Source of the DNA: Bacillota bacterium
GTDB taxonomy: Bacteria > Bacillota > Sulfobacillia > DUSP01 > DYEP01
DNA length: 64,000 nt
Direction: 5' to 3'
Assembly: GCA_040755615.1 (NCBI GenBank)
Contig: JBFMAL010000009.1
Coordinates: 3,155-67,154, forward strand
Shown: in pieces, positions 5,472 to 36,733 of the stretch
How positions within the stretch are numbered: the first letter of the stretch is position 1
Layout: each line of letters opens with the position of its first letter
Program-made: the position numbers and the translations under genes
The notes under the pieces: model-generated
Databases searched by the model: none
The model's input: the letters and a program-made list of their open reading frames with translations, nothing else
Told to the model about the DNA's origin: nothing

Positions 5472-6347
5472 TTATCTCCCAAGCGCTTCTTTGATTAAGG
5501 CCGGCACCTCCCAGGGCAGCTGCGCGATGCGCGCCCCTCCGGCTTCCAGTGCTTTTACTTTGCTTTCAAAAGTGCCCCTGCCCCGTTCGATGATGGCGCC
5601 TGCGTGCCCCATGCGCTTTCCTGGTGGCGCGCTCTTGCCCGCAAGGTAAGCCACTACGGGCTTGTTCATGCCCTTGATCAGCTCGGCAGCTTCTTCCTCC
5701 TGTGTGCCGCCGATCTCGCCCACCAGCACGCACGCCTCCGTATCCGGGTCCTTTGCGAACTGCTTTAAAATACTGACAAAACTCTGGCCCACCACCCGGT
5801 CTCCGCCCAGTCCCACAACGGTGGACTGGCCAAGGCCTGCCCTGGTGAGCGACTGCGCCACCTCGTAGCTCAGGGTGCCCGAGCGGGCAGCAATACCGAC
5901 GCATCCCGCAGCATATATCTGGTTCGGCATGATCCCGATCTTGCACTTGCCTGGGCTTATGATACCGAACGTGTTGGGCCCGATTACGGTCGTACCCTTC
6001 TCTTTCGCAAACGCCATGATGTCCAGCGTGTCGTGTACAGGTATGTGCTCGGTGATAATCACCACCACAGCGACGCCCGCGTCTATCGCCTCAAACGCCG
6101 CGTCCTTCGCAAACCGGGCGGGCACGAACAGGACTGACGCGTTGGCGCCGTGCTTTTCCACTGCGTCCTCTACAGTATCATACACCGGCAGCCCGTGCAC
6201 TTCCTGCCCGCTTTTGCCCGGAGAGACACCGGCGACCACCCGGGACCCGTAAGCCAGCATCTGGGCGGCGTGGAACGCTCCCTGGTTGCCAGTGATGCCC
6301 TGAACCACCACCTTGGTCTTTTCGTTGATTATAATGGCCACTGTCAC
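5472..6347 (-). CDS. sucD: succinyl-CoA synthetase alpha subunit
   Basis: CoA-binding and phospho-histidine region (RMGHAGAII, GPNCPGII-like GPNTFGIISPG). 4-nt overlap with sucC. Confidence 0.9.
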   Translation of the reverse strand: MTVAIIINEKTKVVVQGITGNQGAFHAAQMLAYGSRVVAGVSPGKSGQEVHGLPVYDTVEDAVEKHGANASVLFVPARFAKDAAFEAIDAGVAVVVIITEHIPVHDTLDIMAFAKEKGTTVIGPNTFGIISPGKCKIGIMPNQIYAAGCVGIAARSGTLSYEVAQSLTRAGLGQSTVVGLGGDRVVGQSFVSILKQFAKDPDTEACVLVGEIGGTQEEEAAELIKGMNKPVVAYLAGKSAPPGKRMGHAGAIIERGRGTFESKVKALEAGGARIAQLPWEVPALIKEALGR

Positions 6348-7459
6348 TCTCCTCCTCCGCGGGCAAGTGCAACAACCCTGGACGCCGCCTCATCCATCGT
6401 CTTGTAAGCGGGGAAACCGTGCTCGGATAGCAGCCGCACCCCTTCTTCCTCGTTTGTACCCACGAGCCTTATCACTACCGGCACCGGTATGCCCCTTTGC
6501 TCCTTGACCATGATGAGGGCTCTAGCCACGTCATCGCAGCGGGTGATTCCACCGAAAATGTTGATCAGGATCGCCTTTGGATTCGTCTCAAGCAGTACTT
6601 CGATGGCCCGGGCCGTGGGCTCCACCGAAGCGCCTCCACCGGCATCGAGGAAGTTGGCGGGGCGCCCGCCGTAGTGCTGCAGGATGTCTAGCGTGGCCAT
6701 GGCCATGCCTGCCCCGTTGGCCATGACGGCAATATCACCATCCAGCTCCACGTAGGAAAGGCCCATTTTTCTGACGCGCAGCTCGATCTCGGTGCCCTCC
6801 TCGATGACCGGCACGCCCTCTTGCCGGAACAGCGCTTCGTCATCAATGTTCAGCCTGCCGTCTGCGGCCACCACCCGGTCGCCGGATATCACCAGCGGGT
6901 TGATCTCGGTGAGCTCTGCGTCGTACTGCTTGAACACACCGTACAGCTTGACCAGGATGTCGGCGACCTTCGACGCGTGCGGCCCCTGCAGTCCCATCCT
7001 CCTTACTATCTGCCTCGCCTTGTAGGCCCCAAGTCCCCAGCTGGGGTGCAGGTTCACCTTTACAATATCCTTAACCGGAACCTCCTCGATGTCCATACCC
7101 CCGCGGGCGGATGCGATACAAAGCGGTGCCCGGTTTCCCGCATCCACAGTGAGCCCGAGATATAGTTCGGCATCGATGCTCAGCCGCTCTTCAACAAGGA
7201 TTGTGTCTACACGTAAACCGCGGATTTCGGTACCAAGGAGTCTTTCCGCGGCCGCTTTGGCCTCCTCAGGTGTGGACGCAAACGCGATGCCCCCGGCCTT
7301 TCCGCGTCCCCCGGCAAGCACCTGGGCCTTGAGCGCCACCGCTCCCAGTGCCCGGGCAGCTGACTCCGCCTCCTCAGCAGTCCTCGCCACCATGCCCTTT
7401 GGCACCGGGATACCGGCTTTCGACATGATCTCCTTGGCCAGGTATTCGTAAAGCTTCAA
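6344..7459 (-). CDS. sucC: succinyl-CoA synthetase beta subunit
   Basis: ATP-grasp N-terminal domain (MKLYEYLAKEIMSKAGIPVP) and CoA-ligase C-terminal domain. Confidence 0.9.
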   Translation of the reverse strand: MKLYEYLAKEIMSKAGIPVPKGMVARTAEEAESAARALGAVALKAQVLAGGRGKAGGIAFASTPEEAKAAAERLLGTEIRGLRVDTILVEERLSIDAELYLGLTVDAGNRAPLCIASARGGMDIEEVPVKDIVKVNLHPSWGLGAYKARQIVRRMGLQGPHASKVADILVKLYGVFKQYDAELTEINPLVISGDRVVAADGRLNIDDEALFRQEGVPVIEEGTEIELRVRKMGLSYVELDGDIAVMANGAGMAMATLDILQHYGGRPANFLDAGGGASVEPTARAIEVLLETNPKAILINIFGGITRCDDVARALIMVKEQRGIPVPVVIRLVGTNEEEGVRLLSEHGFPAYKTMDEAASRVVALARGGGE

Positions 7460-9085: not shown

Positions 9086-9766
9086 CTACGGCTCTATGTC
9101 TCGCGCATCGTACATCGCCTTGAGCTCTTCGGTACTGGTATCGCAAAGCGCATCCAGGTCCCGGTCGAACTCGCCCGCCTTGATCCTCGAGACGACGGAG
9201 GCCAGATGCTCCGCGGGAGGAGCGATGTACCTCGCATACAGCCTTCTTGCCAGGATCGCCACGTTGTACTGCACGGTCTCAGCGGGGCAGCGGGACGCGC
9301 ACAGTCCGCACATGATGCAGTCAAACGACAGGTCCGCAACCTTCTCGATATCACCCCGCATGGCGGCTGCCATGTAATCCATTACTTTGAGTTCCTGTGG
9401 GCATACCTTGGTGCAGGTGTTGCACCCCAGGCACCTTGAGAGCTCGGGGTAGCTCTTTAGAAGCTGCGCCAGGGTGGGCGCCGCCTCCCTGATGTCGTAC
9501 CGGGCCCGGTTTGCGGGGAAAAACGGCAGCTGCGCCAGGTACATGTCGTTTTCCACCACCGTCTGGCAGGCCAGACCCACCTTTATCCTGTAATCCCCGG
9601 GGGTGCGGTAGACCGTACCGCACGCGCCGCAAAAGCCTCCCCTGCAGCCACAGCCCCTGATAAACTTGTAGCCCGCATACTCCATGGCCTTCATGATGGT
9701 GAGCCCTGCGGGCACCTCGTAGGCCTTGCCCATCACGTGGATTTTCACCATCTCCGGTTCTGCCAA
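9086..9766 (-). CDS. succinate dehydrogenase/fumarate reductase iron-sulfur subunit-like protein
   Basis: 2Fe-2S motif CGCRGGFCGACG plus two ferredoxin-type motifs, CLGCNTCTKVCP and CIMCGLCASRCP. Confidence 0.7.
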   Translation of the reverse strand: MAEPEMVKIHVMGKAYEVPAGLTIMKAMEYAGYKFIRGCGCRGGFCGACGTVYRTPGDYRIKVGLACQTVVENDMYLAQLPFFPANRARYDIREAAPTLAQLLKSYPELSRCLGCNTCTKVCPQELKVMDYMAAAMRGDIEKVADLSFDCIMCGLCASRCPAETVQYNVAILARRLYARYIAPPAEHLASVVSRIKAGEFDRDLDALCDTSTEELKAMYDARDIEP

Positions 9767-9781
9767 TTCGCTTTCCCCCTT

Positions 9782-10888
9782 TTACCTGGGTTCCAATTCT
9801 TCTTCTCTGAACGTGGACAACGGCAGAGGATCGTCCAGGCTCCGCCCAGGCACATAGTTCCAGATGGCCTGAATCCGCTCGCTTGCAGCCGCAAACAGCG
9901 TGGCCAAAGGCAAGTCCGCCGGGCAGGCGCTCTCGCACATGCCGCAGTTCACGCAGGATGTGCCCATGTGGTTCAGCCTCGTCAGATGAAACAGCAGGGT
10001 ATCTGTGGGCATCTCGATAAGTCCCTTCCGGCTCGCCCACCTGACATAGCTTGAGGACTCGTGGTCGAAGATCCTCCCGTCGAACACGCACTCCTTGCAG
10101 TAGCAGATAGGGCATGCCCTGCGGCAGTTACCGCATTTTAGGCACATGGCCATCTCGGCCATAAGAGCGGGGAGGTCCGGCACCGCCTGCCTCCACTGGG
10201 AGAACCGGGTTTTCCTCGCATCCTCTCTGCGCGTGCGGAGTGCCGCCAGCGCCTTGGCTCTCTCGCCCGCCTCGCCCGCAGAAAGCCCGAGCGCTCCCGC
10301 TATTTCATCTGCCAGCTCGTGCTTTATCTCCACTACCAGCTGGTCGGGCGATGTGCCGACAACACCGATGTTCGCGGCGACGTTGCCTGATACCGCCTCC
10401 ACGCACACCTCGCACGCGGACCGAACGCCAGAAGCGGCGCCGGACCTCATCGAGGCGACCCAGTCCTCCGAAAGGTCTTTCAGCCCGGAGCCGGAAAGCC
10501 TGGCCCTGAAGACCTCGGGGTCCAGCGTGCCGAGGCAGTCCACTCCAATGAGTAAGAGCCTTGAAAGGTCGACCTGCTTCAGCTTGACCAATTCGTAGGC
10601 CGCCCGTACCTCACAAGGCCTGCACACGGCAGCGATCCGCGCTTTTGGGTCCTTGAACGTCAAGTGCCCGAGTACCTTGGCCTGGCTGACGAGCACAAGC
10701 GGTGCGAAGGGGTCTGGCGCGACCAGTTTTTCGGGGTCGCGGACGAGCGTAGAGACCACGCTTCTGCCGGAGGAGGTTTCCTGCGGCACCAGGACCAGGT
10801 CGACCACGCCGGCTGTGAGGAGCCCGCGAAAGAAACCCCTTACGGTCCCCCAAAAGTCCCCCTGAGTGTTCAAAACAAAGCTCTTCAT
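9782..10888 (-). CDS. FrhB/FdhB-family Fe-S flavoprotein (F420-hydrogenase beta-subunit-like)
   Basis: N-terminal FrhB-like domain, C-terminal CLKCGNCRRACPICYCKEC and CVNCGMCESACP motifs. AGCGAGGT RBS before ATG at 10888 (track ORF starts with GTG at 10924). Confidence 0.55.
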   Translation of the reverse strand: MKSFVLNTQGDFWGTVRGFFRGLLTAGVVDLVLVPQETSSGRSVVSTLVRDPEKLVAPDPFAPLVLVSQAKVLGHLTFKDPKARIAAVCRPCEVRAAYELVKLKQVDLSRLLLIGVDCLGTLDPEVFRARLSGSGLKDLSEDWVASMRSGAASGVRSACEVCVEAVSGNVAANIGVVGTSPDQLVVEIKHELADEIAGALGLSAGEAGERAKALAALRTRREDARKTRFSQWRQAVPDLPALMAEMAMCLKCGNCRRACPICYCKECVFDGRIFDHESSSYVRWASRKGLIEMPTDTLLFHLTRLNHMGTSCVNCGMCESACPADLPLATLFAAASERIQAIWNYVPGRSLDDPLPLSTFREEELEPR

Positions 10889-10911
10889 GGTGTCTACCTC
10901 GCTTTGAGCCA

Positions 10912-11358
10912 TCAGATTTCCCACTGTGCCTTCATGGGATTGGGGCCAAGTTGCTTGAGAGTTGCCACCATCTTTGTCACCGTATCCGCGAACAGCTTGC
11001 CTTCGCTGGCCGAGATAAACCGGAACCAGACCCGGTCCCCGGGAATGCCGAACTGCGAAAGCACGTTCTTGGCAATGGCCACACGGCGTCGTGCCTTGTA
11101 GTTACCGTTGACGTAATGGCAGTCTCCCGCGTGGCACCCGCCCACCAGCACCCCGTCGGCGCCTTCCAGTATGGGTTTTATGATGTACAGGGGATCGACC
11201 GACCCGCTGCACATCACCCTGATCACCCTGATGTTGGGCGGGTACTGGATCCGGGAGGTACCCGCAAGGTCCGCGCCTGTGTAGGTACACCAGTTGCACA
11301 GAAGGGCGATAATCTTCGGCTCAAAATCTGAAGCTGTCTTTTGTGCCGGAACGCTCAT
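10912..11358 (-). CDS. mvhD: MvhD-type hydrogenase iron-sulfur subunit (methyl-viologen-reducing hydrogenase delta-subunit family)
   Basis: KIIALLCNWCTYTGADLAG ... CSGSVDP ... GCHAGDCHY signature of MvhD/FlpD. 4-nt overlap with the downstream hdrL. Confidence 0.75.
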   Translation of the reverse strand: MSVPAQKTASDFEPKIIALLCNWCTYTGADLAGTSRIQYPPNIRVIRVMCSGSVDPLYIIKPILEGADGVLVGGCHAGDCHYVNGNYKARRRVAIAKNVLSQFGIPGDRVWFRFISASEGKLFADTVTKMVATLKQLGPNPMKAQWEI

Positions 11359-15797: not shown

Positions 15798-16651
15798 GCT
15801 TCCACCCCCGCCTTCAGCTTCTCAAATACCATCTTCGTGGAGACCAAATGGCGGGCGAGCCACCGCCGAGTCCCATGAAGACCCAGCGCCACTCCCATGA
15901 GTTCGGTGAAATAGAACACGGGAATCCGCTGGCTGGACGACCGCCTCATCTCCAGATTCGCCTGGCAGAGGGGGCATGCTGTGACGATAGCGTCCGCACC
16001 GGCGTCGATGGCGGCCGCTACAATTGGCTTCACCATGGCCACCACCAGCCGGCTGCTGGTCAGCGAGAGGTTGGCCCCGCAGCACTCCGTCCTGTAGGAC
16101 CACCTGACGCACGATGCGCCGAGCGCCTCCATAATGTCTTCCATCATCCGCGGGTTTTCCGGATCGGCGACCCCAGTCACCTCGGCAGGCCGCAGCAGCA
16201 GGCACCCGTAATAGCAGGCGAGCTTCAGCTTGAGCGGTTGCTTCACCTTCCGCTCGATGGCGGCTGCCGTGATGCGCCTGTGCATGAACTCAAGCAAGTT
16301 TTCCACTTCCGGTACGCGCGAAAAGCGATAATCCAAGGCATGTTCACTCATCTGCCTTATGCTGTCTCGGCGCCTGATGTGGTGCGCAGCCTTCTTCAGT
16401 CTACTGTAGCACGCCGCGCAGGGCGCCACCACCAGGTCCGCCCCTTCAGCGTCCGCCTGCGCCAGGTTCCTCGCGGCCAGCGCGATCCCCAGCTGGCCGT
16501 TGGTGCTGTGCGCTGATGTGGCGCCGCAGCAGTTCCAGTCTGACACCTCGGGTATATCCAGTTCAAACGCGGAAAACACCGCCTTTGTACTTTCATCATA
16601 TTCCTTCGCCGTGGAATGCAGCGAGCAGCCGGGATAATACTTGACGTTCAA
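15794..16651 (-). CDS. hdrB: heterodisulfide reductase subunit B-like (two CCG domains)
   Basis: CCG domain motifs (YYPGC...WNCCGA, CYYGC...ECCGA, ACPLCQANL). Confidence 0.85.
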   Translation of the reverse strand: MNVKYYPGCSLHSTAKEYDESTKAVFSAFELDIPEVSDWNCCGATSAHSTNGQLGIALAARNLAQADAEGADLVVAPCAACYSRLKKAAHHIRRRDSIRQMSEHALDYRFSRVPEVENLLEFMHRRITAAAIERKVKQPLKLKLACYYGCLLLRPAEVTGVADPENPRMMEDIMEALGASCVRWSYRTECCGANLSLTSSRLVVAMVKPIVAAAIDAGADAIVTACPLCQANLEMRRSSSQRIPVFYFTELMGVALGLHGTRRWLARHLVSTKMVFEKLKAGVEA

Positions 16652-20523: not shown

Positions 20524-21765
20524 CTAAAATCTCTCGAGCGCCCGCTTCACCAGTTCCTCTGTATGTAGAGCCACTTCAGCGGGATCCACTGATAACCTAG
20601 CAACGCCGCTCTCCATGGCAGCTTTGGCCACTGCGGCAGCTACCGCGGGCGCTACCCGGCGGTCGAACGCCTTAGGTATGACGTAGTCGGCCGAGAGTTC
20701 ATCCGGGGCGATAAGATCGGCGATGGCCCTCGCTGCAGCCACCTTCATGGGCTCGTTGATATCCTTCGCCCTCACGTCCAGCGCCCCGCGCAGCACACCC
20801 GGGAACGCCAGCACGTTGTTGACCTGGTTCGGGAAGTCCGAGCGGCCCGTGCCAACAACTTCTGCGCCTCCAGCAAACGCCTCTTCCGGGAAGATTTCCG
20901 GCATGGGGTTTGCCATGGCAAACACCACCGCACGCTTTGCCATGGACTTCACCATCTCCCGCGTGACCAATCCGGGACCTGACACGCCGATGAACACGTC
21001 CGCGCCGCGCATGGCCTCCGCCAGGTCTCCCTTCACCATATCCTTGTTGGTGCGCTCCGCAATGCGTTCTTTGTAGACATTCATGCCGTGCTCGCGCCCT
21101 TTGTAGATGGCACCGGCCCTGTCGCATAAGATCACATCGCCAAGTCCCAGATCCATAAGCAAGAGCGTGGTGGCGATGCCGGCCGCGCCCGCGCCGACCA
21201 CCACCGCCTTAATACCTGAAAGCTCTTTTCCCACGATCTTAAGTGCGTTGAACATCGCCGCGGTGACTACTATGGCTGTCCCGTGCTGGTCATCGTGGAA
21301 AATGGGGATGTTGGTTTCAGCCTTCAGTCTCTCTTCGATATAGAAGCAGCGGGGGGCGGAAATGTCCTCGAGGTTTACCCCTCCGAAAGTGGGCTCAAGC
21401 TTCTTCACGAGGTCTACGATTTCGTCGGGGTCATTTGTAGCGACGCAGATGGGAAAGGCATCCACACCACCGAAGCACTTGAACAATACGGACTTGCCTT
21501 CCATTACAGGCATGGCAGCCTCGGGACCGATGTCGCCCAGCCCGAGCACGGCTGTGCCGTCGGAAACCACGGCGACCAGGTTGCTCTTGGCCGTGTACTC
21601 GTAGACCTTTGATACATCACGGTAAATTTCGATGCAGGGCTCCGCTACCCCAGGCGTGTACGCCAGGCTGAGGTCTCGCTTATCGAGTACGGGCACCTTG
21701 CTTACAACCTCCACCTTGCCCACATTGTCCCTATGCAGCTTGAGCGCGTCCTCTCGAATGGACAT
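20524..21765 (-). CDS. NAD(P)-dependent malic enzyme (short MaeB-type)
   Basis: Malic enzyme N-terminal domain (LSLAYTPGVAEPC) and NAD-binding domain (VVVGAGAAGIA). Confidence 0.85.
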   Translation of the reverse strand: MSIREDALKLHRDNVGKVEVVSKVPVLDKRDLSLAYTPGVAEPCIEIYRDVSKVYEYTAKSNLVAVVSDGTAVLGLGDIGPEAAMPVMEGKSVLFKCFGGVDAFPICVATNDPDEIVDLVKKLEPTFGGVNLEDISAPRCFYIEERLKAETNIPIFHDDQHGTAIVVTAAMFNALKIVGKELSGIKAVVVGAGAAGIATTLLLMDLGLGDVILCDRAGAIYKGREHGMNVYKERIAERTNKDMVKGDLAEAMRGADVFIGVSGPGLVTREMVKSMAKRAVVFAMANPMPEIFPEEAFAGGAEVVGTGRSDFPNQVNNVLAFPGVLRGALDVRAKDINEPMKVAAARAIADLIAPDELSADYVIPKAFDRRVAPAVAAAVAKAAMESGVARLSVDPAEVALHTEELVKRALERF

Positions 21766-21775
21766 AATCTACCTC

Positions 21776-22324
21776 CTAACGTTTATAACGCTTCTGCCCT
21801 TCCTCGTAAACATCACGTCCCTCCGTGTCGATACCAACTATCGCCGGGAAATGTTCGACTTCGAGCCTGTATACCGCTTCGGGGCCCAGGTCCGGGTAGG
21901 CCACCACTTCCGCCTTCCTGATGCGTTGAGCGAGCAGTGCTCCCGCTCCTCCGACAGCGAGAAAATACACGGCGGCCACATCTTTCATAGCGTCCTTGAC
22001 TGCCTGGCTTCTTTTGCCCTTGCCGATCATCCCCCGAAGACCCGCTTGTGTTAGCATAGCAGGGGTGTACGCGTCCATCCGTCCGCTCGTGGTGGGCCCG
22101 GCGGATCCGATGACCTGGCCTGGTTTGGCAGGGCAGGGACCGACGTAGTAAATGATCTGGTCAGTCAGGTCTACAGGCAGGGGCTGACCGGCCGCTATCG
22201 CCTCCGTCATCCGCTTGTGCGCCGCGTCGCGGGCGGTGTAGATCACGCCGGAGATGAGCACGCGGTCCCCCGCGATCAACGATCTGGCCTGGGACTTGTC
22301 AAACGGGGTAGTGATCCTTCTCAT
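21776..22324 (-). CDS. fumB: class I fumarate hydratase, beta subunit (C-terminal catalytic domain)
   Basis: Fe-S hydro-lyase beta-type sequence (LISGVIYTARDAAHKRM, GPTTSGRMD). Confidence 0.85.
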   Translation of the reverse strand: MRRITTPFDKSQARSLIAGDRVLISGVIYTARDAAHKRMTEAIAAGQPLPVDLTDQIIYYVGPCPAKPGQVIGSAGPTTSGRMDAYTPAMLTQAGLRGMIGKGKRSQAVKDAMKDVAAVYFLAVGGAGALLAQRIRKAEVVAYPDLGPEAVYRLEVEHFPAIVGIDTEGRDVYEEGQKRYKR

Positions 22325-22336
22325 CTAGGCTTCACC

Positions 22337-23179
22337 TCACAACTGGATTTCCGCGTGCCTTGCGGCGTGGCACTGGATGTTCACGGCTACGGGCAGCGCG
22401 CCGATGTGCGTAGGGTGGGTCTCCACGTGGACAGCGAGCGCGGTGATCCGGCCGCCCAGCCCCTGCGGGCCGATGCCGGTGTTGTTCACCGCCTCAAGTA
22501 TCTCGGACTCAAGTTTCTCCACCTCGGGGTCTGGATGGTGCTGGCCGACAGGTCGAAGCAGCGCCTTCTTGGCGAGCAGCGCGGCGGTCTCCATCATGCC
22601 CCCCACTCCCACCCCCACGATGATGGGGGGGCACGGGTTTGATCCCGCCCTACTCACGGTCTCGACCACGAAGTCCACCACGCCGCGCTTTCCGTCGGCG
22701 GGTACCATCATCCTGAGCTGGCTCATGTTCTCACTGCCAGTACCCTTGGGGCATACGACGATCTTTAAGCGATCCCCAGGCACGATGCAGGTGTGGACGA
22801 TGGCCGGGGTGTTATCCCCCGTGTTCTTCCTGTCAAAAGGATCCCGCACTACCGATTTCCTCAGGTACCCACGGGAGTATCCCCTGCGCACGCCCTCGTC
22901 GATGGCCTCCTGCAGAGAGCCCCCGGTAAAATGCACGTCCTGCCCGACTTCAAGGAACACAATGGCGACGCCGGTATCTTGGCAAATGGGGACCTCAGCT
23001 GACCTGGCCAGTTCGGCATTTTCAATGAGCAGTCCGATGATCTCCCTTCCGACTTCCGATTCCTCCGCTTCTTTTGCCCACCGGAGGCGTTCCAACACGT
23101 CACTGGGCAGCCGGTTGGCGGCCTGGATACACAGCTGCTCCACCGCGTCGGTCACCTTTGACACCGGTATCTCTCTCAA
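22337..23179 (-). CDS. fumA: class I fumarate hydratase, alpha subunit (TTG start)
   Basis: Fe-S hydro-lyase alpha-type sequence (ICQDTGVAIVFLEVGQ, Cys ligands). AAGGAGGG RBS 8 nt before TTG at 23179; the longer track ORF to 23380 has no RBS. Confidence 0.8.
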   Translation of the reverse strand: MREIPVSKVTDAVEQLCIQAANRLPSDVLERLRWAKEAEESEVGREIIGLLIENAELARSAEVPICQDTGVAIVFLEVGQDVHFTGGSLQEAIDEGVRRGYSRGYLRKSVVRDPFDRKNTGDNTPAIVHTCIVPGDRLKIVVCPKGTGSENMSQLRMMVPADGKRGVVDFVVETVSRAGSNPCPPIIVGVGVGGMMETAALLAKKALLRPVGQHHPDPEVEKLESEILEAVNNTGIGPQGLGGRITALAVHVETHPTHIGALPVAVNIQCHAARHAEIQL

Positions 23180-23376
23180 GTCGATTCCCTCCTTGCCGAC
23201 AAAATGAAGACCGGCTTCCCTGGCAATACCCTGTGAAGCCGGTAACCGTACCCGGTTTGCGCATGCCGGGTGACCCCGGCCCGCTGCAGGTACGAAGGCC
23301 GAATAAATCGCTTCCCGCACGCGACTTCGAGTTCCATCCCGCGCGGTCTGCACCATATTATCGGGAGATGAAGCGC

Positions 23377-23706
23377 TCAAGGTCTCCTTTTCAGATGGTA
23401 TGCCCTGAACTTCTCCCTGATGATCTTCATAGCAGTGATGATAGCCTTCTGGGCGCTCCCGTGGTAACGCTCCTCGATGTCCGCCACGATGGCGTCAAAG
23501 TCCTCCTCGAGGTTTAGCCCCTTCACCATGCGGATGAAGAAGTCCCTGCCTACCCCCGTGGCCAGCGTGCACTCAGCAGCGAGTATGTAGCCCCTTTGGT
23601 CCACCTCAAGGCCCACACCCACCACTTTGTACAGCTCAGACGCGGTGATACCTGCAGGCAGTTTTGCATACCCCGAGAAAAACAGGGTATCCCGGGATCC
23701 GCCCAA
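23377..23706 (-). CDS. small conserved hypothetical protein in the metF-fumA operon
   Basis: 109-aa ORF with good codon usage, overlapping the fumA-extension ORF by 4 nt. No recognisable motif. Confidence 0.4.
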   Translation of the reverse strand: MGGSRDTLFFSGYAKLPAGITASELYKVVGVGLEVDQRGYILAAECTLATGVGRDFFIRMVKGLNLEEDFDAIVADIEERYHGSAQKAIITAMKIIREKFRAYHLKRRP

Positions 23707-25395: not shown

Positions 25396-26238
25396 TTAGT
25401 ACTCCTGGGGCATCTGGCGAAGCTGTTCGTACGTGAACACGGGTCCGTCCTTGCACACGTACCTCGGTCCGATGTTGCAGCGGCCGCACTTGCCCACGCC
25501 ACACTTCATCCTCATCTCGAGGGTGGTTACGATCTGGGACGGGGAAAACCCGAGCTTCTCCAGGTTCTGCAGCACAAACTTGATCATGATGGGAGGGCCG
25601 CACGTAATGGCGATGGTGTTTTCAGGACTTGGACCTACCTCCATTAGTACCGCAGGCACAAACCCCTCCCTGCCGGTCCACGTCTCGTCACCCCGGTCCA
25701 CAGTCAGGTAAAACCGGATGTCCTCCCGCTTCTCCCATTTCTCCAGCTCCCACTTAAACACCAGGTCGCCAGGGCTTCTCGCCCCGTAGATGATCGTCAC
25801 GTCGCGGAATTTGCCGCGGTGCTCGTCATCGAGCACGTAGGTGATGAGCGACCGCAGCGGGGCAAGTCCGATGCCTCCCGCGATGAACACCAGGTGTTTG
25901 CCTTCCATGATTTCCACGGGGAAGTGGTTGCCGTACGGTCCTCGCACGCCGATGAGCTCGCCGGGCGCGGAATAGTGCAGCGCCGTGGTCACCTCCCCAG
26001 CCTTCTTTATGGAAAACTCGAGGTAACCTTTTTGGGTTGGCGACGAGGTAATAGATATGGGCGCCTCGCCCACGCCGAACACGGACAGCTCGGCGAACTG
26101 CCCCGGCCTGTACTGGAAGCTATCCCACACCGATTCGTCCTCGAACACCACCCTGAACGTTTTCACGTCGTTCGCTGCGGTTTCAGTGATGATCTCTTTG
26201 ATCCTTGCTTTGTGGGGAATATAAAGGTTTGACATCAC
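25396..26238 (-). CDS. NfnA/AsrB/HydG-like FAD- and [2Fe-2S]-containing NAD(P)H oxidoreductase subunit (PyrK family)
   Basis: Ferredoxin-NADP reductase-type FAD/NAD domains (RPGQFAEL, LVFIAGGIGLAPL) and C-terminal CGVGKCGRCN 2Fe-2S motif. 280 aa. Confidence 0.7.
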   Translation of the reverse strand: MMSNLYIPHKARIKEIITETAANDVKTFRVVFEDESVWDSFQYRPGQFAELSVFGVGEAPISITSSPTQKGYLEFSIKKAGEVTTALHYSAPGELIGVRGPYGNHFPVEIMEGKHLVFIAGGIGLAPLRSLITYVLDDEHRGKFRDVTIIYGARSPGDLVFKWELEKWEKREDIRFYLTVDRGDETWTGREGFVPAVLMEVGPSPENTIAITCGPPIMIKFVLQNLEKLGFSPSQIVTTLEMRMKCGVGKCGRCNIGPRYVCKDGPVFTYEQLRQMPQEY

Positions 26239-27245
26239 TTCACCTCCCCGATCTCGGAGATGACCTCACGGATATCTGTGTTCACAGGGCATACCTCCAC
26301 GCAGCGCCCGCAACCCACACACGCAATGGCGCCGGAGTTCACCGGGAAATAATTGAACTTGTGCATGATACGCTGGCGCATGCGCTGCTTACCCGAGGTC
26401 CTCGGGTTGTGACCTGAGGTGTGCAGGGTAAACAGCGGGAACATGCACGAGTCCCAGTTTCTCACCCGGTGGCCTTCGGTGGTCTTTGCCTCATCGGTCA
26501 CGTCAAAACAGTGGCACGTGGGGCAAAGGTACGCGCACGCGGCGCAGCCCAAGCATTTTTCGTGGATCCTGTCCCAGATCTCGTGTTCGAACATGTGAGT
26601 GAGCTTGTCGGGCAGGACCTCCGCTGGATATCTCGGCATCATATCGCGCGCGAGGTCGGCAAGGGCAGATGCGCGCGCTTCTACTTCGCCTGAACCTTCA
26701 GGCAGTTCCCCCACGAGCGCCTCGCCCCGTCCGGTCAGCGGGTACACCGCGTATTCGTCCCCTGTGTCAACAAACAGTACGTCAAGCCCTTCTGTACCGT
26801 GAGGATCCCCGGCTACGGAGGTGCAGAAACACGAGCGCAAAGGCTTGTTGCAGCCAAGCCCGACGAGCACGGTGCGTTCCCTCTTTGCCTTGTACAGATC
26901 ATCGGTGAAGCGCTCGTCAAGGAATACCCTGTCAAGCAGCGCAAGGCTTCTGGCATCACAGGGTCTTACGCCGAATACTACCGTCTGCTCATGGTCCTGG
27001 TCTATTGGTGATAGCTCCGCGTTCATCCTGTCGCCAGTATAGGCAAACATCCGCTCCGACCTCGGGAAAAACAGCTCTTTCAGGGGTTTCCAGGTGTTCC
27101 GGCCCAAATCCAACTCGGCCCCGGGTTCCCACGGAGCGAGATTTGTCATCTCATCTTGCCGCGCGGGGGCAAGCACCCTGGCCGACTGGGACCACTTACC
27201 CAAAAGGCACGGCAGGTCTTTCTTCTGTAGTATCTTGACGGCCAT
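26235..27245 (-). CDS. AsrA/HydB-like Fe-S subunit (anaerobic sulfite reductase A / sulfhydrogenase beta family)
   Basis: CLGCAACAYLCPTCHCFD and CVGCGRCVEVCPV motifs. Start at ATG 27245 (MAVKILQKKDLP, AGGGGG RBS) rather than the track start at 27326. Confidence 0.65.
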   Translation of the reverse strand: MAVKILQKKDLPCLLGKWSQSARVLAPARQDEMTNLAPWEPGAELDLGRNTWKPLKELFFPRSERMFAYTGDRMNAELSPIDQDHEQTVVFGVRPCDARSLALLDRVFLDERFTDDLYKAKRERTVLVGLGCNKPLRSCFCTSVAGDPHGTEGLDVLFVDTGDEYAVYPLTGRGEALVGELPEGSGEVEARASALADLARDMMPRYPAEVLPDKLTHMFEHEIWDRIHEKCLGCAACAYLCPTCHCFDVTDEAKTTEGHRVRNWDSCMFPLFTLHTSGHNPRTSGKQRMRQRIMHKFNYFPVNSGAIACVGCGRCVEVCPVNTDIREVISEIGEVK

Positions 27246-27258
27246 AGTAGCGCCCCCT

Positions 27259-28197
27259 CTACTTGATAAAGTCATTGGGATCATCCGCCCTGAAGGTGGA
27301 GAGCACCTGCTTTCCCTCGTGCTCAAGCCCTGCAGTAAAGCCGAACAGTTCTCTCACGTCCCGCTCTAGCTTTTTGTTCAGCGCCCGCAGGTCCACGCCC
27401 ATCGGACACGCCTTCACGCACGCGCCGCAGTCTACGCATCGGCCGGCGAGGTGCAAGGCCCTTATAATATGGAAGATCGCCGTATCGCTCGGATCGTCCG
27501 TGCCGCCCACCCACCTCGGGGCCGAGCGGTCTACGAAACACTCCTTGCAGTAGCAGCCGGGGCACGCCTGCCTGCAGGCGTAGCACCTGATGCACTTTTC
27601 AAACTGGGCGGTAAAATATGCCCAGCGCTCATCCGGCGTGAGTCTTTCCATGTCGTCCACGAGGGCAAAGGGTTCCGCCACCTGCGCCGCAGCGGCTTCA
27701 CCCAGCTTTATCGCAGCGCCCGGTGCCTCCTTCACCTCGCACGTCTCGCAGGACGGGTGGAGCACTTCAAAAAGCTGTAGCGTCTCCTCCCAACCGTCGC
27801 CGCGCACGCGGACGGTGTCGCCGTCCATCTCCGCACCGGTGATCTCCTTTCCCGAAAGCCGCCGAGAAAGCCTGTCTCGTCCGATCACTCCCTGGCACGG
27901 CACGCCGATGACCACCACGTTACCGGGGTCAAGCTGCCTCTCCCTCAGGTATTCCTGCACCGAGCGGGCGTCGCAGCCCTTAGCCACCACCGCGAGGCGT
28001 TTCCCGGCGTATCGCGGAAGGTAGGTGGACAGGTTGTTCTCGCACGTGGCGTCGAATACGGCGCACTCCGCATCTTCTGCGTTCCTTATAAACACGGGGG
28101 TCGAGCGCAGCGGCAGGCTGCCCTTTGCGTACGCGATCACCAGGTCCACTTTGCCGCCGGCCAGCATCTCACGTATAACGCGTCTAAGCTCTTCCAC
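27259..28197 (-). CDS. FrhB/FdhB-family-like Fe-S protein, second paralog
   Basis: CIRCYACRQACPGCYCKEC and CVDCGACVKACP motifs similar to the 9782-10888 gene, with an N-terminal domain resembling FrhB_N. Confidence 0.5.
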   Translation of the reverse strand: MEELRRVIREMLAGGKVDLVIAYAKGSLPLRSTPVFIRNAEDAECAVFDATCENNLSTYLPRYAGKRLAVVAKGCDARSVQEYLRERQLDPGNVVVIGVPCQGVIGRDRLSRRLSGKEITGAEMDGDTVRVRGDGWEETLQLFEVLHPSCETCEVKEAPGAAIKLGEAAAAQVAEPFALVDDMERLTPDERWAYFTAQFEKCIRCYACRQACPGCYCKECFVDRSAPRWVGGTDDPSDTAIFHIIRALHLAGRCVDCGACVKACPMGVDLRALNKKLERDVRELFGFTAGLEHEGKQVLSTFRADDPNDFIK

Positions 28198-28633
28198 GCG
28201 CCGTCCCTCCTTTCACTAGTTTGACAGAGGGACCAAGCTCTTTCACCGTCTCTGTCACTTCTTTGATCACCTGGGCGAACTTTTGCCCCTCAGCCGCCGA
28301 CACCCAGGAAAACTGGACCCGGCCGGGCTCGATCCCCATGTACTCAAGGAGGTTCTTAAGCAGCAAAAACCTCCTCCGCGCCAGCAGGTTGCCGGCGAGG
28401 TAATGGCAATCACCGGGGTGGCAGCCGGAGACGAGCACGCCGTCAGCGCCGCGCTGCAGCGCCTTCAAGATGAATATGGGGTTTATTGACCCGGAGCACG
28501 GTACCCGGATGACCCTCACGTTGGGCGGGTACTGGAACCTGGATATCCCGGCCAGGTCTGCCCCGGCGTAGCTGCACCAGTGGCAAAGGAATGCCACGAT
28601 CCGCGGTTCCCAGTTGGCTTCTTTGTTTACCAT
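28184..28633 (-). CDS. mvhD: MvhD-type hydrogenase iron-sulfur subunit, second copy
   Basis: RIVAFLCHWCSYAGADLAG ... CSGSINP ... GCHPGDCHY. Start at ATG 28633 with GGAGGTG RBS; the longer track ORF would overlap hdrL. Confidence 0.75.
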   Translation of the reverse strand: MVNKEANWEPRIVAFLCHWCSYAGADLAGISRFQYPPNVRVIRVPCSGSINPIFILKALQRGADGVLVSGCHPGDCHYLAGNLLARRRFLLLKNLLEYMGIEPGRVQFSWVSAAEGQKFAQVIKEVTETVKELGPSVKLVKGGTARGRA

Positions 28634-33054: not shown

Positions 33055-33537
33055 CTACTCCTCCCCCGAACCTAAAGAGTTTACCACTCCCGCAAGCAGC
33101 GCGCGAAAGTCGACGCTCTCTGACTTTGCCTTGCCGGGAAGCATGGACAGCACCAGCGCGCGCCTCACCTTCTGCGAGAACTCGTCGGCCTGCTCCATCC
33201 TTTCGAGGAAGGATGGGTGCACGAAGCCGTGCTCCACGGCCATCTCACGAAGTACTCCCATGATGTCCGTGAACCGGACGTCTTGCGGGCAGTGCGCGTG
33301 GCAGGTGTGGCACGTGGTGCAGAGCCATATGAGATCCGACGAGAGCACTTCCTCGCGGAGGCCAAGGAGTACCTTTCTTATAATCCGCCTCGGGTTGTAT
33401 TCTTCGTCCACTTCCGCCACCGGGCAGCCGGCGGTGCACACGCCGCAAGCAAAACATGTCTTGATCCTGTCTCCGCCGGGCCGGCTTGCCACCTCATACT
33501 TGAACCTGGGATCCACTTTTGTCTCACACAAGGCCAT
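33055..33537 (-). CDS. HdrC-like 2x[4Fe-4S] ferredoxin subunit
   Basis: CFACGVCTAGCP and CTTCHTCHAHCP motifs. 160 aa. Confidence 0.7.
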   Translation of the reverse strand: MALCETKVDPRFKYEVASRPGGDRIKTCFACGVCTAGCPVAEVDEEYNPRRIIRKVLLGLREEVLSSDLIWLCTTCHTCHAHCPQDVRFTDIMGVLREMAVEHGFVHPSFLERMEQADEFSQKVRRALVLSMLPGKAKSESVDFRALLAGVVNSLGSGEE

Positions 33538-33555
33538 ACAATTCTCCCTCCTCGG

Positions 33556-33972
33556 CTATACCGCGTCAAAACCTGCGCGGGAGGATATTCCGTTCAACTT
33601 GACTGCCATTTCGTCTATGGCGCGGACGAAGCGTGCGGGCGTCGCAGGGGAAACATTCACCATGGAAAGCCTATCCGGGTCAAGCCCTGCGTCCTGAAGC
33701 TGCGCCTTCAGATATTCCACTCTCTTGCTCGCACGCACGTTGCCTGAGACAAAGTTGCAGGCGTCCTCGAAACAACCGAACACCAAGACTCCGTCGGCGC
33801 CCTGCTCGAATGCCTTGAGAATGTGGATCGCGTCCACCCTTCCTGAACACTCCACAGGATAAAACATTACGCCACCGTCAAGCCTTGCGCCCTTGCTCAC
33901 AGCCTCAAATAAGCACTTGCTCGCCGAATGTTCGCAACAAAAAGCCACTATCCGGGGCGACCTGTCGCTCAC
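33556..33972 (-). CDS. MvhD-like iron-sulfur subunit (GTG start overlapping upstream stop as GTGA)
   Basis: RIVAFCCEHSASKC ... CSGRVD ... GCFEDACNF MvhD-like pattern. GGGAGGGAG RBS before GTG at 33972. Confidence 0.65.
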   Translation of the reverse strand: MSDRSPRIVAFCCEHSASKCLFEAVSKGARLDGGVMFYPVECSGRVDAIHILKAFEQGADGVLVFGCFEDACNFVSGNVRASKRVEYLKAQLQDAGLDPDRLSMVNVSPATPARFVRAIDEMAVKLNGISSRAGFDAV

Positions 33973-35513
33973 AGCGCTCCCTCCCCACTCGATGCGAGTT
34001 CTGCCAGGAATTCCTCGTCGGTATATGCGATGACACTTATGGCCCGGGCGGGGCAGGCCGAGGCGCACACGCCGCAACCTTTGCATTTTGAGCCGTCAAC
34101 CCTGGCAGCGGATTTGTCCGACATGCTGTAGCTGTCGATAGCGATGGCTCCGAACGGGCAGAGCCTCACGCAGGTGAGGCACCTGGCACACAGCGCCGCG
34201 TCCACCGCCACCTTGTCGCTCGTGTCCACGCACGAAAGGAAGCGTTCTATCTCATCCGCAGCCTGGTACGCATCAAGCGCCTGTTCGTAGTCGTCAAGAT
34301 CCGCCCTTGCCTCGCCCACCACAAAGATACCCACGCGCGCGCTGTTCACCCCGGAAAACCTCACGTTGCCGGGCTGCACAGGCGAAAGCCCGAGCACCCT
34401 GGCAGCGCCAGCCAGTGCCTTCGAGGGTACCAGCGTCTCGTCAACGACCAGGATGTCAAGGGGCAAATGGAGCGGTTGTTCCATCCACTGCCCGCCAAGA
34501 GACGGCAAATGGCAGCTGACGACGAGAGCGTCTTCCTCTGTTGACACCGAAAACGCTCGCCCTTCTTTCTTGATCACCAGCACTCCCGCTTCCCGCGCCT
34601 GCCTGTACTTGGCTTCAAGTCCTTTGCCCGCAACCTTTACATCCCGGCAGAACACGTACGCTTCGCCGCCAAAGCGCGTGACAACGTCTTTGGCTAGGTC
34701 AAGCGCCTGAGTTACATATCGCTTGGAGTGCTCGGTGGAAACGTCCACCATGAAGCCGACACGGCGTCCCCTGAGCCTCGGTACGCATACTGTACTCTCG
34801 CTGTTTAAAAGACACGAAAACCCTGTCATGGAGTATATGCCCATGCCCAGTTCAAAGCCGTGATCCGCCTGACGGTACTCCGAGTTTTGGGACTCGGCCA
34901 GCACCAAAGCTCCGGCGGGCAGGTCCAACTTTTCGCCGGCCTTCTCCACCGTGAGCGAAAAGCGCCCAGGGCCGCCCTCGAGCCTGATGAGACTCGCGCC
35001 AGCGAGCACCGATACGCCCGCTGTATCAAGCAGCGCAGCTTTCTCCGGGGGCATGCCGCCTTCCGCCTCGGTGATCAGAGTCACCTTCTTGCCCCGTCCG
35101 GCCAGCAGCCCGGCGACATGAAGCCCCGCAGGGTTATCACCCACCACGACCACTTCATCCGAGGTCACACATGAAGATGCCGGCTTCCTGGCAGCCTTTG
35201 CGCGAGCCCGGGCCACAGCGCGGGCGAGTAACTCTCTGGCCTTGTCGCCGGGTTCCCGGTACATGAACGCGCAGCCTTCCCGGAGGTCCAAGAACACGCT
35301 GTCAGTCCCTGCGCTGCCTGCTAGAAGCCTTCTTGCGAGAAACGGCGGGCACGCGCCGATCACCGCGGGGCCCCCGTCCAACACGCCTTTATCCTCTCCG
35401 CAGAGGCACTCCACCGCCGTGCCGCCGAACTCAGACGCAAGCGCGTTAATGTCGATGCGGTCCGAGATGGCGCCCCTGCAGCCGCACAGCACCAGCTTGA
35501 ATTCATCCATCAC
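33969..35513 (-). CDS. degenerate HdrA-like protein (N-terminal Cys domain + degenerate FAD fold + C-terminal 2x[4Fe-4S])
   Basis: LVLCGCRGAIS N-terminal motif, degenerate VVVVGDNPAG dinucleotide site, C-terminal CARCLTCVRLCP and CKGCGVCASACP. Confidence 0.55.
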   Translation of the reverse strand: MMDEFKLVLCGCRGAISDRIDINALASEFGGTAVECLCGEDKGVLDGGPAVIGACPPFLARRLLAGSAGTDSVFLDLREGCAFMYREPGDKARELLARAVARARAKAARKPASSCVTSDEVVVVGDNPAGLHVAGLLAGRGKKVTLITEAEGGMPPEKAALLDTAGVSVLAGASLIRLEGGPGRFSLTVEKAGEKLDLPAGALVLAESQNSEYRQADHGFELGMGIYSMTGFSCLLNSESTVCVPRLRGRRVGFMVDVSTEHSKRYVTQALDLAKDVVTRFGGEAYVFCRDVKVAGKGLEAKYRQAREAGVLVIKKEGRAFSVSTEEDALVVSCHLPSLGGQWMEQPLHLPLDILVVDETLVPSKALAGAARVLGLSPVQPGNVRFSGVNSARVGIFVVGEARADLDDYEQALDAYQAADEIERFLSCVDTSDKVAVDAALCARCLTCVRLCPFGAIAIDSYSMSDKSAARVDGSKCKGCGVCASACPARAISVIAYTDEEFLAELASSGEGAL

Positions 35514-36733
35514 GACGACACCTCCGCCTCAAGCCGGGATACGAGCGACATTGCCGCGCCCTGCGCGTGGGCGATGGCGTCCGCGATGGTCATGGGCTTG
35601 GCGCACGCCCCTGCCACCACCACGCCTGGCCTGCGCGTGGCGAAATGGCCGGTCTCGTCAAAGAATCCGTGCTCGTCAAGGTTCAGCCCAAGTCGCCTGC
35701 CGACCAGCGCCGCGTCTTCGCGCGGCCAGATGCCTGTGGACAGCACCACCAGGTCAAACTCGGCATGCGCGACCCGGGCGCTTGATTGGTCCTCGTATCT
35801 GACCAACACGCCCTGCTTTCCCTTCTTGATCTCCACCGGCATCCCCGACACGAACCTGGCGTGTGCCTTGCACTCTTCATATACCTTGGAAAAGCCTTTA
35901 CCTGCCGACTGTATGTCCATGTAGAACAGGGTAAACTCGGTGTCAGGCCGCTCTTTCCTTAGGGCGTTGATCATCCTCAGCGCATACTTGCAGCACACCT
36001 CGGAGCAGTAGTTTCTCCCGAGGGGGATGTTACGGGAACCCACGCACTGCACGAACGCGATGCGCCGGGGCGCTTGGCCATGAAGGAGCAGCGTCCCGTG
36101 CTGTCTCAGCGCTTCCTCCGCCTCCATGGCCGTCATCACGCCGGGTATCCTGCCGTAGCCCAGGTCCCATGCGTTCGCGGCATCGAACGGGGAGAACCCG
36201 GTCGCCACCACCACTCCGTCCGCGCGCAGCGTAAATGTCCGGGCCGGCAGGAGCTGTATCGCCCCGAAAGCACATGCAGTCCTGCACTTTCCGGCGCAAT
36301 CTGCGGGGCATTCTGCTTCGTTCATCACCACGGCCTGCGGATATGCACTCGCAGGCGCTCTCTTTATGGCGCCGGCGGTGCAGCTGTCCATGCACTGGCC
36401 GCATGCCGTACATTTGTCAGGGTCCACCCATCTTTCCCTCTGGGTCACCTCGACGGTGAAATCTCCGGGGAAGCCCCGGAGGGCGGTTACCGATGCCCTG
36501 GTGTGCACCGCCACTCCAGACAGGTCTCCGAGCTCCTCCATCTTATCGCTAACCAGGCAGACACCGCACATGGTGCAGCTTGATGACGCCTTACACCCGT
36601 AGGTGATCGCGCGTCCGCCCAGGTAGTCGGCTCTGTCGACGATGTGCACGTCGATTCCCCGTCGCGCGAGGGAAAGGGCGGCGGAAACCCCGGCTATACC
36701 TCCACCAATGATGATGACAGTACGTTTTGCCAA
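35510..36733 (-). CDS. HdrA-like FAD oxidoreductase core (lacks the N-terminal Cys domain and C-terminal ferredoxin)
   Basis: VIIIGGGIAGVSAA FAD site, inserted ferredoxin motifs (CTACGQCMDSC), HdrA-like CVGSR and CSEVCC motifs. Confidence 0.65.
   Translation of the reverse strand: MAKRTVIIIGGGIAGVSAALSLARRGIDVHIVDRADYLGGRAITYGCKASSSCTMCGVCLVSDKMEELGDLSGVAVHTRASVTALRGFPGDFTVEVTQRERWVDPDKCTACGQCMDSCTAGAIKRAPASAYPQAVVMNEAECPADCAGKCRTACAFGAIQLLPARTFTLRADGVVVATGFSPFDAANAWDLGYGRIPGVMTAMEAEEALRQHGTLLLHGQAPRRIAFVQCVGSRNIPLGRNYCSEVCCKYALRMINALRKERPDTEFTLFYMDIQSAGKGFSKVYEECKAHARFVSGMPVEIKKGKQGVLVRYEDQSSARVAHAEFDLVVLSTGIWPREDAALVGRRLGLNLDEHGFFDETGHFATRRPGVVVAGACAKPMTIADAIAHAQGAAMSLVSRLEAEVSS

Follow-up and report, generated by a model that had tools for sequence, protein, structure and literature searches.

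A stretch of 64,000 nucleotides from contig JBFMAL010000009.1 of a Bacillota bacterium (assembly GCA_040755615.1), here called the window, encodes three copies of the connector protein MvhD among Hdr genes, including two for the giant HdrA-type flavoprotein HdrL, and no recognisable hydrogenase. This raises the question as to which protein occupies the hydrogenase's place beside MvhD, and what role that protein plays. An earlier note on this DNA suggested that a FrhB-like Fe-S flavoprotein, encoded next to MvhD, may replace the hydrogenase and feed HdrL from a soluble cofactor. The observation is correct in substance, and the pairing is a real and robust feature of the locus; the role of the partner is probably a different one. 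Both FrhB-like proteins of the window appear to belong to the Hdr-associated FdhB/ElpB/FlxC lineage and would act as flavin-free multi-[4Fe-4S] connectors that sit with MvhD on the HdrL arm and wire it to the adjoining catalytic module. Judging from the sequences, we give this reading a probability of roughly 60%.

MvhD and its FdhB-like partner

All three MvhD genes are confirmed by matches to PF02662 (Table 1), and the claim that the 64 kb hold no hydrogenase subunit gene stands, with two kinds of scan in agreement. Pfam scans took in the long open reading frames (ORFs) of the window that were judged likely genes, and found among them neither a [NiFe] or [FeFe] hydrogenase subunit nor a molybdopterin FdhA. 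A six-frame motif scan of the window returned 0 ORFs with both NiFe large-subunit motifs and 0 H-cluster motifs. Matches to the NiFe 'L1' motif in HdrL and other ORFs were rejected as Fe-S motifs, none having the paired C-terminal DPCxxCxxH. The motif scan of 83 related loci likewise gave no hydrogenase motif.

The minus strand carries nearly every gene from 4.9 to 47 kb, with small gaps or overlaps between them, and in two places mvhD abuts or overlaps a gene for a FrhB-like protein (FdhB-like #1 and #2). The start of MvhD #1 overlaps the HdrL #1 stop by 4 nt; 23 nt separate its own stop from the ATG of FdhB-like #1 (10888), unless an alternative GTG start (10924) is used, with which the two genes overlap. 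The adjacency reported earlier is therefore genuine, and the reported order is reversed: because all genes are on the minus strand, transcription passes through HdrL and MvhD before reaching the FrhB-like gene. The heading that each MvhD has such a neighbour was overstated, because only two of the three do. MvhD #3, flanked by a split HdrA-like gene and a HdrC-like gene, has no FdhB-like neighbour. Its cysteine pattern is deviant, with FCCEHS in place of CxWC.

The same pairing is found well beyond this genome. A scan of one genome per species (GTDB representatives, among which the window's own species is absent) found relatives in at least 546 species, from which the best 80 loci were taken; the best match (62%) is in Ca. 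Hakubella. With the window proteins as queries, MvhD proved to be encoded upstream of the FdhB-like gene at every locus whose upstream DNA was long enough (76 of 76), at a distance of no more than 300 bp in 72, and further upstream on the same strand there is generally a gene for HdrL or a HdrA-like protein. The pair spans at least seven phyla: Chloroflexota, Bacillota, Thermodesulfobacteriota, Gemmatimonadota, Omnitrophota, Verrucomicrobiota and, with Ca. Hakubella, Actinobacteriota. When FdhB-like #2 and MvhD #2 were concatenated and used as a query, all 117 new top hits were natural fusions of 445–535 aa, with MvhD at the N-terminus and the FdhB-like part at the C-terminus. DVU_2401 of Desulfovibrio vulgaris is listed as a single 54-kDa (54.1 kDa) 'FlxCD' protein (PMC10920352). 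FdhB-like ORFs of 450–610 aa in eight related loci were considered as further fusions and rejected as ORF-extension artefacts, since tblastn found MvhD to be a separate gene just upstream; at one locus it has an in-frame TGA. Conserved partners downstream of the pair are homologues of the window's 226-aa Fe-S protein (FeS226) or TfrA-like proteins, HdrCB, EtfBA or FlxBA; ten sampled unlabelled neighbour ORFs included EtfBA, a PEP-utilising enzyme, a transporter and HypD, with no FdhA and no hydrogenase subunit among them. Taken together, these comparisons make a physical and functional link between MvhD and the FdhB-like protein as strong as comparative genomics allows, and the pairing does not look like chance.

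Membership of both genes in the FrhB/FdhB family, as the earlier note had it, is marginal by Pfam and is confirmed independently by searches of the PDB and by a structure model. PF04432 (FrhB_FdhB_C) was matched at 24.7 bits (#1) and 24.1 bits (#2), just above the gathering cut-off of 23.3 and along only part of the profile, and PF04422, the N-terminal domain, was matched by neither at E <= 1e-3. Single-sequence searches of the PDB gave strong matches to only three chains for both proteins, 7bkb_E, 8rvu_E and 9t1s_M: FdhB (7bkb_E) was found at E = 5e-32 (#1) and 7e-26 (#2), and ElpB (8rvu_E) at ~1e-26. The FdhB and ElpB chains come from archaeal assemblies, solved by cryo-electron microscopy, in which these subunits take the place of the MvhAG hydrogenase: FdhAB-MvhD-HdrABC of Methanospirillum hungatei (PDB 7BKB; Fdh-Hdr, 2021; chain 7bkb_E from the Fdh-Hdr-Fmd complex) and ElpABC-HdrABC of Methanothermobacter marburgensis (PDB 8RVU/8RVY; PMC12350162). 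A profile of 23 homologues recovered the same three chains, each as one full-length alignment (9t1s_M, E = 1e-49; 7bkb_E, 5e-45; 8rvu_E, 4e-41), with classical FrhB-type proteins far weaker (8rja_E, 6e-10; Fsr, 2e-4). Foldseek with an AlphaFold2 model (pLDDT 82.5) placed 7bkb_E and 8rvu_E at TM 0.68, followed by FrhB, Fsr and HCAR at E = 1e-8 to 1e-4. FdhB-like #1 and #2 are themselves paralogous (25% identity, E = 5e-28). An ElpA/FdhA partner was not found in the window; the 226-aa Fe-S protein was tried as a remnant of one and rejected, as it matches neither the ElpA nor the FdhA chains of the PDB, and only generic polyferredoxins and, weakly, TfrB/SdhB. The homology to FdhB and ElpB, the invariant pairing and the natural fusions all support the earlier proposal that a FrhB/FdhB-family protein, and not a hydrogenase, is the module associated with MvhD. 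Bacterial MvhD is thereby shown, with wide comparative support, to be the fixed partner of an FdhB/FlxC-type Fe-S protein, and because of this pairing, when attached to such gene pairs, the labels 'formate dehydrogenase subunit beta', 'F420 hydrogenase beta subunit' and 'hydrogenase iron-sulfur subunit' are misleading.

Two variations were seen among the related loci. Some MvhD homologues have an in-frame TGA at the cysteine position of 'GG*HPGDCH', or ORFs cut to 70–92 aa (L059, at 9424-9837; L014, L016, L020, L046, L068 and L069); these are probably selenocysteine-containing MvhD proteins, of which D. autotrophicum is a reported case. At several loci of Anaerolineae and Gemmatimonadaceae (L005, L007, L008 at 13761-15523, L011 and L048) the cluster has no fumarate reductase and runs on into HdrC-HdrB-HdrD-like-HdrA-EtfB-EtfA, which suggests an ETF-linked variant; EtfBA was called by Pfam for the L008 pair and by ORF sizes at the other loci.

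Flavin site, Fe-S ligands and rival explanations

Does the partner carry the flavin that a cofactor-oxidising donor would need? In the cryo-electron microscopy paper on FrhB (PMC3930138), FAD is held by three loops: 24-QDGG-27 at the pyrophosphate, the highly conserved G73-T77, and I132-F138, which includes the cluster ligand Cys134. The archaeal FdhB and ElpB proteins retain both of the first two, as 'GECGGAVTA' (ECGG) and 'GSLHC'. In FdhB-like #1 the first loop reads DFWG, at a position that is unconserved and without glycines in its bacterial family, and the second loop is swapped throughout subfamily 1 for a PLAPV-type motif with an invariant Ala-Pro. Subfamily 2 begins past the first loop and has 'CxNN' at the second. 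Two of the three FAD-binding loops are thus absent from both bacterial subfamilies, while every Fe-S cysteine is kept. The invariant cysteines (C92, C118, C159, C162 and the 11 C-terminal ones) align with those of the archaeal proteins, and the first four are the retained ligands of the [4Fe-4S] cluster next to the flavin site, the equivalent of the Cys134 loop of FrhB. Because the FAD loops are lost and the cysteines are not, the FrhB-like protein is most likely a flavin-free multi-[4Fe-4S] connector. Assigning a cofactor-oxidising flavin to it, as in the proposed two-electron donor fed by a soluble cofactor, is probably wrong. Recognisable sites for soluble cofactors are found instead in its neighbours: HdrL has a GltD-like NAD(P)H domain, and cluster 2 also encodes a FlxA/ShyC-like FAD/NAD(P) protein. 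The idea of a donor also sits badly with cluster 1, where the arm ends in a fumarate-reductase-like flavoenzyme, an acceptor.

A dehydrogenase role is nevertheless worth weighing, since ElpB and FdhB, to which the window proteins are homologous over their full length, bear FAD and oxidise F420H2. On this reading the FrhB-like protein would be an ElpB-like flavin/Fe-S enzyme that oxidises a soluble two-electron carrier (e.g. F420H2) and feeds MvhD and HdrL. The strong conservation of the N-terminal domain within the bacterial family would fit, as would the close relatives in Chloroflexota and Ca. Hakubella; F420 is common in Chloroflexota and Actinobacteriota. We consider it unlikely, given the unconserved or missing pyrophosphate (GG) and second FAD loops of both subfamilies, the undetected PF04422, the dedicated NAD(P)H modules encoded alongside and a source metagenome-assembled genome that is labelled Bacillota.

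The partner could also be a true formate dehydrogenase beta subunit with FdhA encoded elsewhere, giving a bacterial Fdh-MvhD-Hdr complex. Clusters of the type hdr-mvhD-fdhB-fdhA are known in D. autotrophicum, D. toluolica and deep-sea Chloroflexi, and many homologues are annotated as 'formate dehydrogenase subunit beta'; against these stand the lack of a molybdopterin protein both among the scanned long ORFs of the window and among the ten sampled downstream ORFs of related loci, and the quite different partners that are conserved downstream, all of which make this explanation very unlikely. Least credible is that the MvhD proteins still work with an MvhAG-type [NiFe] hydrogenase whose genes lie beyond the window, with the FrhB-like genes as unrelated neighbours. 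The window is only part of a genome, and hypD near one related locus (L076) indicates that some carriers own [NiFe] hydrogenases, but such an arrangement is hard to reconcile with a pair that is present in every locus with enough DNA and is frequently fused, with the absence of hydrogenase motifs from the window and the related loci scanned, and with solved structures that place FdhB or ElpB at the hydrogenase position.

Two gene clusters and the modules they may wire

The two connectors adjoin different enzymes. In cluster 1 (5.5–23.4 kb) the strand block holds the whole pyruvate-to-succinyl-CoA route, broken only by the Hdr, HdrL, MvhD and FdhB-like genes. FdhB-like #1 is followed, after a 15-nt gap, by the gene for the 226-aa Fe-S protein and, after a further 6-nt gap, by that for the 537-aa flavoprotein. 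Aligned with E. coli FrdA, this flavoprotein keeps the His of HPTG, the T, E and R of TE..RG, the Arg of RD, the His of HY and the Arg of NRL, and has Asn in place of His44, the residue of covalent FAD attachment. By the established biochemistry of Frd and Sdh, an enzyme with non-covalent FAD is more in keeping with the reduction of fumarate than with the oxidation of succinate. Ca. Hakubella has the identical gene order, HdrC-HdrB-HdrA-HdrC-HdrB-HdrL-MvhD-FdhB-like-FeS-flavoprotein, and Chloroflexi have a similar one. Of the 66 loci with enough DNA, 41 have a FeS226 or TfrA-like gene no further than 7 kb downstream, and L088 has the fumarate reductase pair (59% and 49% identity) behind a canonical hdrCBA-flx(DC)BA cluster; other related loci run on into HdrCB, HdrD-like/HdrA and EtfBA. 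The flavoprotein also has a conserved N-terminal extension of about 88 aa; its distinct subfamily is present too after the L088 flx-hdr cluster.

Cluster 2 (23.8–33.1 kb) has its own HdrL, MvhD and FdhB-like genes, followed by FlxB- and FlxA-like genes, neither of which occurs in cluster 1, and by metV and metF. The order HdrA/L-MvhD-FdhB-like #2-Fer4_22-FAD/NAD recurs in L087 and L088 and is the mirror image of flxABCD-hdrABC; the true start of the FlxB-like gene is probably at ~27245, as called in L084. The Hdr set here consists of HdrL and a HdrC-like protein only, with no CCG-domain protein (HdrB) between 23.7 and 36.8 kb, whereas cluster 1 has HdrABC, a second HdrBC and HdrL. The acs genes of the Wood-Ljungdahl cluster lie at 36.8–46.9 kb. 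By its gene content, cluster 2 joins a Flx-type NAD(P)H module to an Hdr-type methylene-tetrahydrofolate reductase like that of Moorella, in one operon within the Wood-Ljungdahl cluster. In L086 and L087, genes for aldehyde:ferredoxin oxidoreductase (AFOR) flank the Flx-like clusters, upstream of HdrL/HdrA-MvhD-FdhB-like #2, which echoes the ethanol/aldehyde link of Desulfovibrio Flx-Hdr. The E/K bifurcating-flavin signature is clear in the first, GltD-interrupted TrxR-like module of both HdrLs; in the second, the Lys is the only part that can be made out.

Table 1 Hdr-related and adjoining genes of the window, by position
Feature	Position	Strand	Remarks
SucC and SucD, succinyl-CoA synthetase	5472..7459	-	6 nt downstream of flavoprotein gene; succinate-formation context
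Fumarate-reductase-like flavoprotein, 537 aa	7466..9079	-	best family TfrA (thiol:fumarate reductase flavoprotein)
226-aa [2Fe-2S] and 2x[4Fe-4S] protein	9086..9766	-	like N-terminal Fe-S half of TfrB/SdhB, without CCG domains; presumed fumarate reductase Fe-S subunit
FdhB/ElpB/FlxC-like Fe-S protein #1, 368 aa	9782..10888	-	FrhB fold; 15 invariant Cys (4 + 11); FAD loops unconserved
MvhD #1, [2Fe-2S] connector protein	10912..11358	-	PF02662 FlpD/MvhD, E = 3e-51
HdrL #1, 1480 aa	11355..15797	-	HdrA TrxR-like module interrupted by GltD/NfnB-like NAD(P)H-FAD-FeS domain, then second HdrA-like module including HdrA N-terminal cluster domain
HdrB	15794-16651	-	paired with HdrL #1; both CCG motifs intact
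HdrC	16648-17220	-	paired with HdrL #1
HdrA, canonical	17236-19185	-	E = 7e-204 to methanogen HdrA; E/K bifurcation signature
HdrB, second	19189-20067	-	CCG motifs kept
HdrC, second	20068-20466	-	with canonical HdrA
Malic enzyme and class I fumarase alpha/beta	20524..23380	-	directly upstream of hdr genes; reductive C4 branch context
MetF	23786-24709	-	PF02219, 1e-43; MetVF = methylene-tetrahydrofolate reductase
MetV	24706-25374	-	PF12225, 2e-36
FlxA/ShyC/HydG/AsrB-like FAD + NAD(P) + [2Fe-2S] flavoprotein, 280 aa	25396..26238	-	PRK08345, 4e-82; HydG, 3e-70
FlxB/ShyB/HydB/AsrA-like Fe-S protein (PF17179, Fer4_22)	26235..27326	-	ShyB, E = 4e-48
FdhB/FlxC-like Fe-S protein #2, 312 aa	27259..28197	-	begins past FAD pyrophosphate loop position
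MvhD #2, FlxD equivalent	28184..28633 (ORF extends to 28699)	-	PF02662, E = 7e-58
HdrL #2, 1474 aa	28627..33051	-	architecture as HdrL #1 and Moorella 'HdrA'
Split HdrA-like genes, MvhD #3 and HdrC-like gene	33055..36733	-	Pfam; directly after acsE
HdrC-like	33055-33537	-	after MvhD #3; no HdrB
MvhD #3	33556-33972 (ORF extends to 34086)	-	PF02662, E = 1e-33
Split HdrA-like ORFs (407 aa, 514 aa)	35510-36733, 33969-35513	-	directly after acsE

If the connector reading is right, each FdhB-like protein would sit with MvhD on the donor or acceptor arm of an HdrA-type flavoprotein, the giant HdrL, and this arm would be the route for electrons between the HdrA-type flavin on one side and the attached module on the other. 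For cluster 1, HdrL would oxidise NAD(P)H at its GltD-like domain, and electrons would reach fumarate by way of MvhD, the clusters of the FdhB-like protein and the 226-aa Fe-S protein; through the HdrA-type flavins, the exergonic reduction of fumarate may then drive ferredoxin reduction by flavin-based bifurcation, disulfide chemistry at HdrBC, or both. In cluster 2, NAD(P)H would again be oxidised at the GltD-like domain of HdrL, and possibly at the FlxA-like protein as well. That the proteins assemble in this organism, which way electrons flow, whether they bifurcate and what HdrBC acts on are all points that we infer. A bolder version is possible rather than probable, namely that cluster 1 encodes a single megacomplex of HdrABC, HdrL-HdrBC, MvhD, the flavin-free wire and a two-subunit fumarate reductase with non-covalent FAD, in which the MvhD arm is the electron exit and the whole is an NAD(P)H-dependent, ferredoxin-reducing (bifurcating) fumarate reductase. 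If so, its HdrL-based form would be conserved from Ca. Hakubella and Chloroflexota to Thermodesulfobacteriota, and would be the fumarate-step counterpart of the Hdr-type methylene-tetrahydrofolate reductase 15 kb away in the same strand block.

Several points weigh against these readings. The loss of FAD is deduced from motifs only, and the N-terminal domain of the FdhB-like family is rich in invariant charged residues (R90, R95, E99, K102, Q105, D117, T121 and R156). Such conservation seems to exceed what a passive wire would need, making another ligand, or a different mode of flavin binding, possible. In archaeal Elp-Hdr, electrons pass from ElpB to the N-terminal clusters of HdrA and from there to ElpC (PMC12350162), and the FdhB-like protein may accordingly have no direct contact with the MvhD cluster; the HdrA N-terminal domain is present in HdrL at residues 924-1158. 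Equating the window proteins with FlxC draws on synteny, sizes and secondary literature, including a comparison with D. reducens. As for the fumarate reductase, the flavoprotein scores 341 bits to TfrA, below the equivalog cut-off of 718, with a comparable 283 bits to L-aspartate oxidase, and it has no FrdA/TfrA C-terminal domain. The model also leaves two complete HdrBC pairs unexplained.

Relation to known systems and neighbouring genes

It is already established, for archaea and for bacteria, that a module other than a hydrogenase can dock on the MvhD arm of Hdr, and here the earlier note was right in principle without being new. The clearest case is Elp-Hdr (2025; PMC12350162), for which experiments showed ElpB and the MvhD homologue ElpC in the place of MvhAGD on the Hdr arm, where they supply electrons taken from F420H2. 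The window resembles the archaeal Elp and Fdh-Hdr systems in having adjacent FdhB/ElpB and MvhD homologues, together with an HdrA-type protein, in the place of the hydrogenase, with homology over the full length and all Fe-S cysteine sets kept. HdrL also retains the N-terminal cluster domain of HdrA, which is the relay between ElpB and ElpC in the archaeal structure. The differences are considerable: the archaeal FdhB and ElpB bind FAD and oxidise F420H2, whereas the window proteins have no FAD loops; the window has no homologue of ElpA or FdhA, and the partner flavoprotein is HdrL, 1480 aa long and with an NAD(P)H domain of its own; and the adjoining catalytic modules are fumarate reductase and Flx/MetVF.

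Among bacteria, the FlxABCD-HdrABC complex of D. vulgaris, which Ramos et al. reportedly described in 2015 as an NADH dehydrogenase/heterodisulfide reductase, has a similar hydrogenase-independent MvhD (FlxD), with the Fe-S protein FlxC adjoining or fused to it. Cluster 2 has FlxA-, B-, C- and D-like genes of matching sizes in mirror order; it differs in having HdrL for HdrA, no HdrB, and metVF attached, and cluster 1 in lacking FlxA and FlxB. The HdrABC/HdrL loci of sulfate reducers share the gene set of HdrABC, HdrL, MvhD and an 'FdhB-like' Fe-S protein without MvhA. Hydrogenase-free MvhD next to 'FdhB' genes was described for D. autotrophicum (2009), which has such hdrL loci, HdrABC/HdrL with MvhD and an FdhB-like Fe-S protein (Sfum_0819-0824) were found in the proteome of S. 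fumaroxidans, and a Flx-like/HdrL locus of D. reducens (Dred_1325-30) is induced on sulfate; HdrBCA-MvhD-FdhBA has been described in Chloroflexi. For the sulfate reducers the large HdrA/HdrL has been named as the site of NADH oxidation, with DsrC as the proposed acceptor, whereas the window cluster runs into fumarate reductase and C4-dicarboxylate genes and the window has no dsr genes.

The fumarate-linked arrangement has precedents too. A Flx-Hdr 'succinate operon' with proposed fumarate-to-ferredoxin coupling is known from Pseudoclostridium thermosuccinogenes (PMC7282089), and in gammaproteobacterial clusters for the reductive tricarboxylic acid cycle tfrAB is interspersed with flxABCD-hdrABC (PMC6315080). 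Like these, cluster 1 combines in one operon the genes for fumarase, for a soluble fumarate reductase of two subunits and for an Hdr/MvhD/FlxC module; unlike them, it has HdrL rather than FlxAB as the entry point for NAD(P)H, two HdrBC pairs, and both HdrA and HdrL. Cluster 2 resembles the Hdr-type methylene-tetrahydrofolate reductases of Moorella thermoacetica and Sporomusa ovata, with acsE-hdr-mvhD-metVF inside a Wood-Ljungdahl cluster and a giant HdrA with a GltD-like insert; in the Moorella HdrCBA-MvhD-MetVF enzyme, the 1487-aa 'HdrA' with its GltD NAD(P)H domain oxidises NADH (PMC9430772). It differs in the FlxC-, FlxB- and FlxA-like genes that stand between mvhD and metV, and in having no HdrB in this sub-cluster. 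What the window adds is a HdrL-based version of the succinate operon and a combined Flx/HdrL/MetVF cluster, both known from genes. The widespread HdrL-MvhD-FlxC-fumarate reductase operon is a candidate for energy conservation at the fumarate step in quinone-poor Wood-Ljungdahl anaerobes, and cultured carriers are found in Desulfotomaculum/Desulforamulus and P. thermosuccinogenes.

A few other genes of the window deserve mention. A DUF3870 gene (23377-23706, minus strand) lies between metF and the fumarase genes, within the redox/C1-C4 strand block, and a DUF3786 gene (47012-47620, minus strand) immediately upstream of the CODH/ACS genes. Further along, a 793-aa protein with PKD domains and no other recognisable family is encoded at 56318-58699 (minus strand), near three ORFs without a Pfam match (54798-55775, 58687-59157 and 62709-63815). 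Finally, an uninterrupted MttB-family methyltransferase of 509 aa, of the non-pyrrolysine type, is located at 59383-62772 (minus strand) by a saccharopine-dehydrogenase-like gene and a GntR/FCD regulator; this locus may serve quaternary-amine demethylation that feeds the Wood-Ljungdahl pathway.

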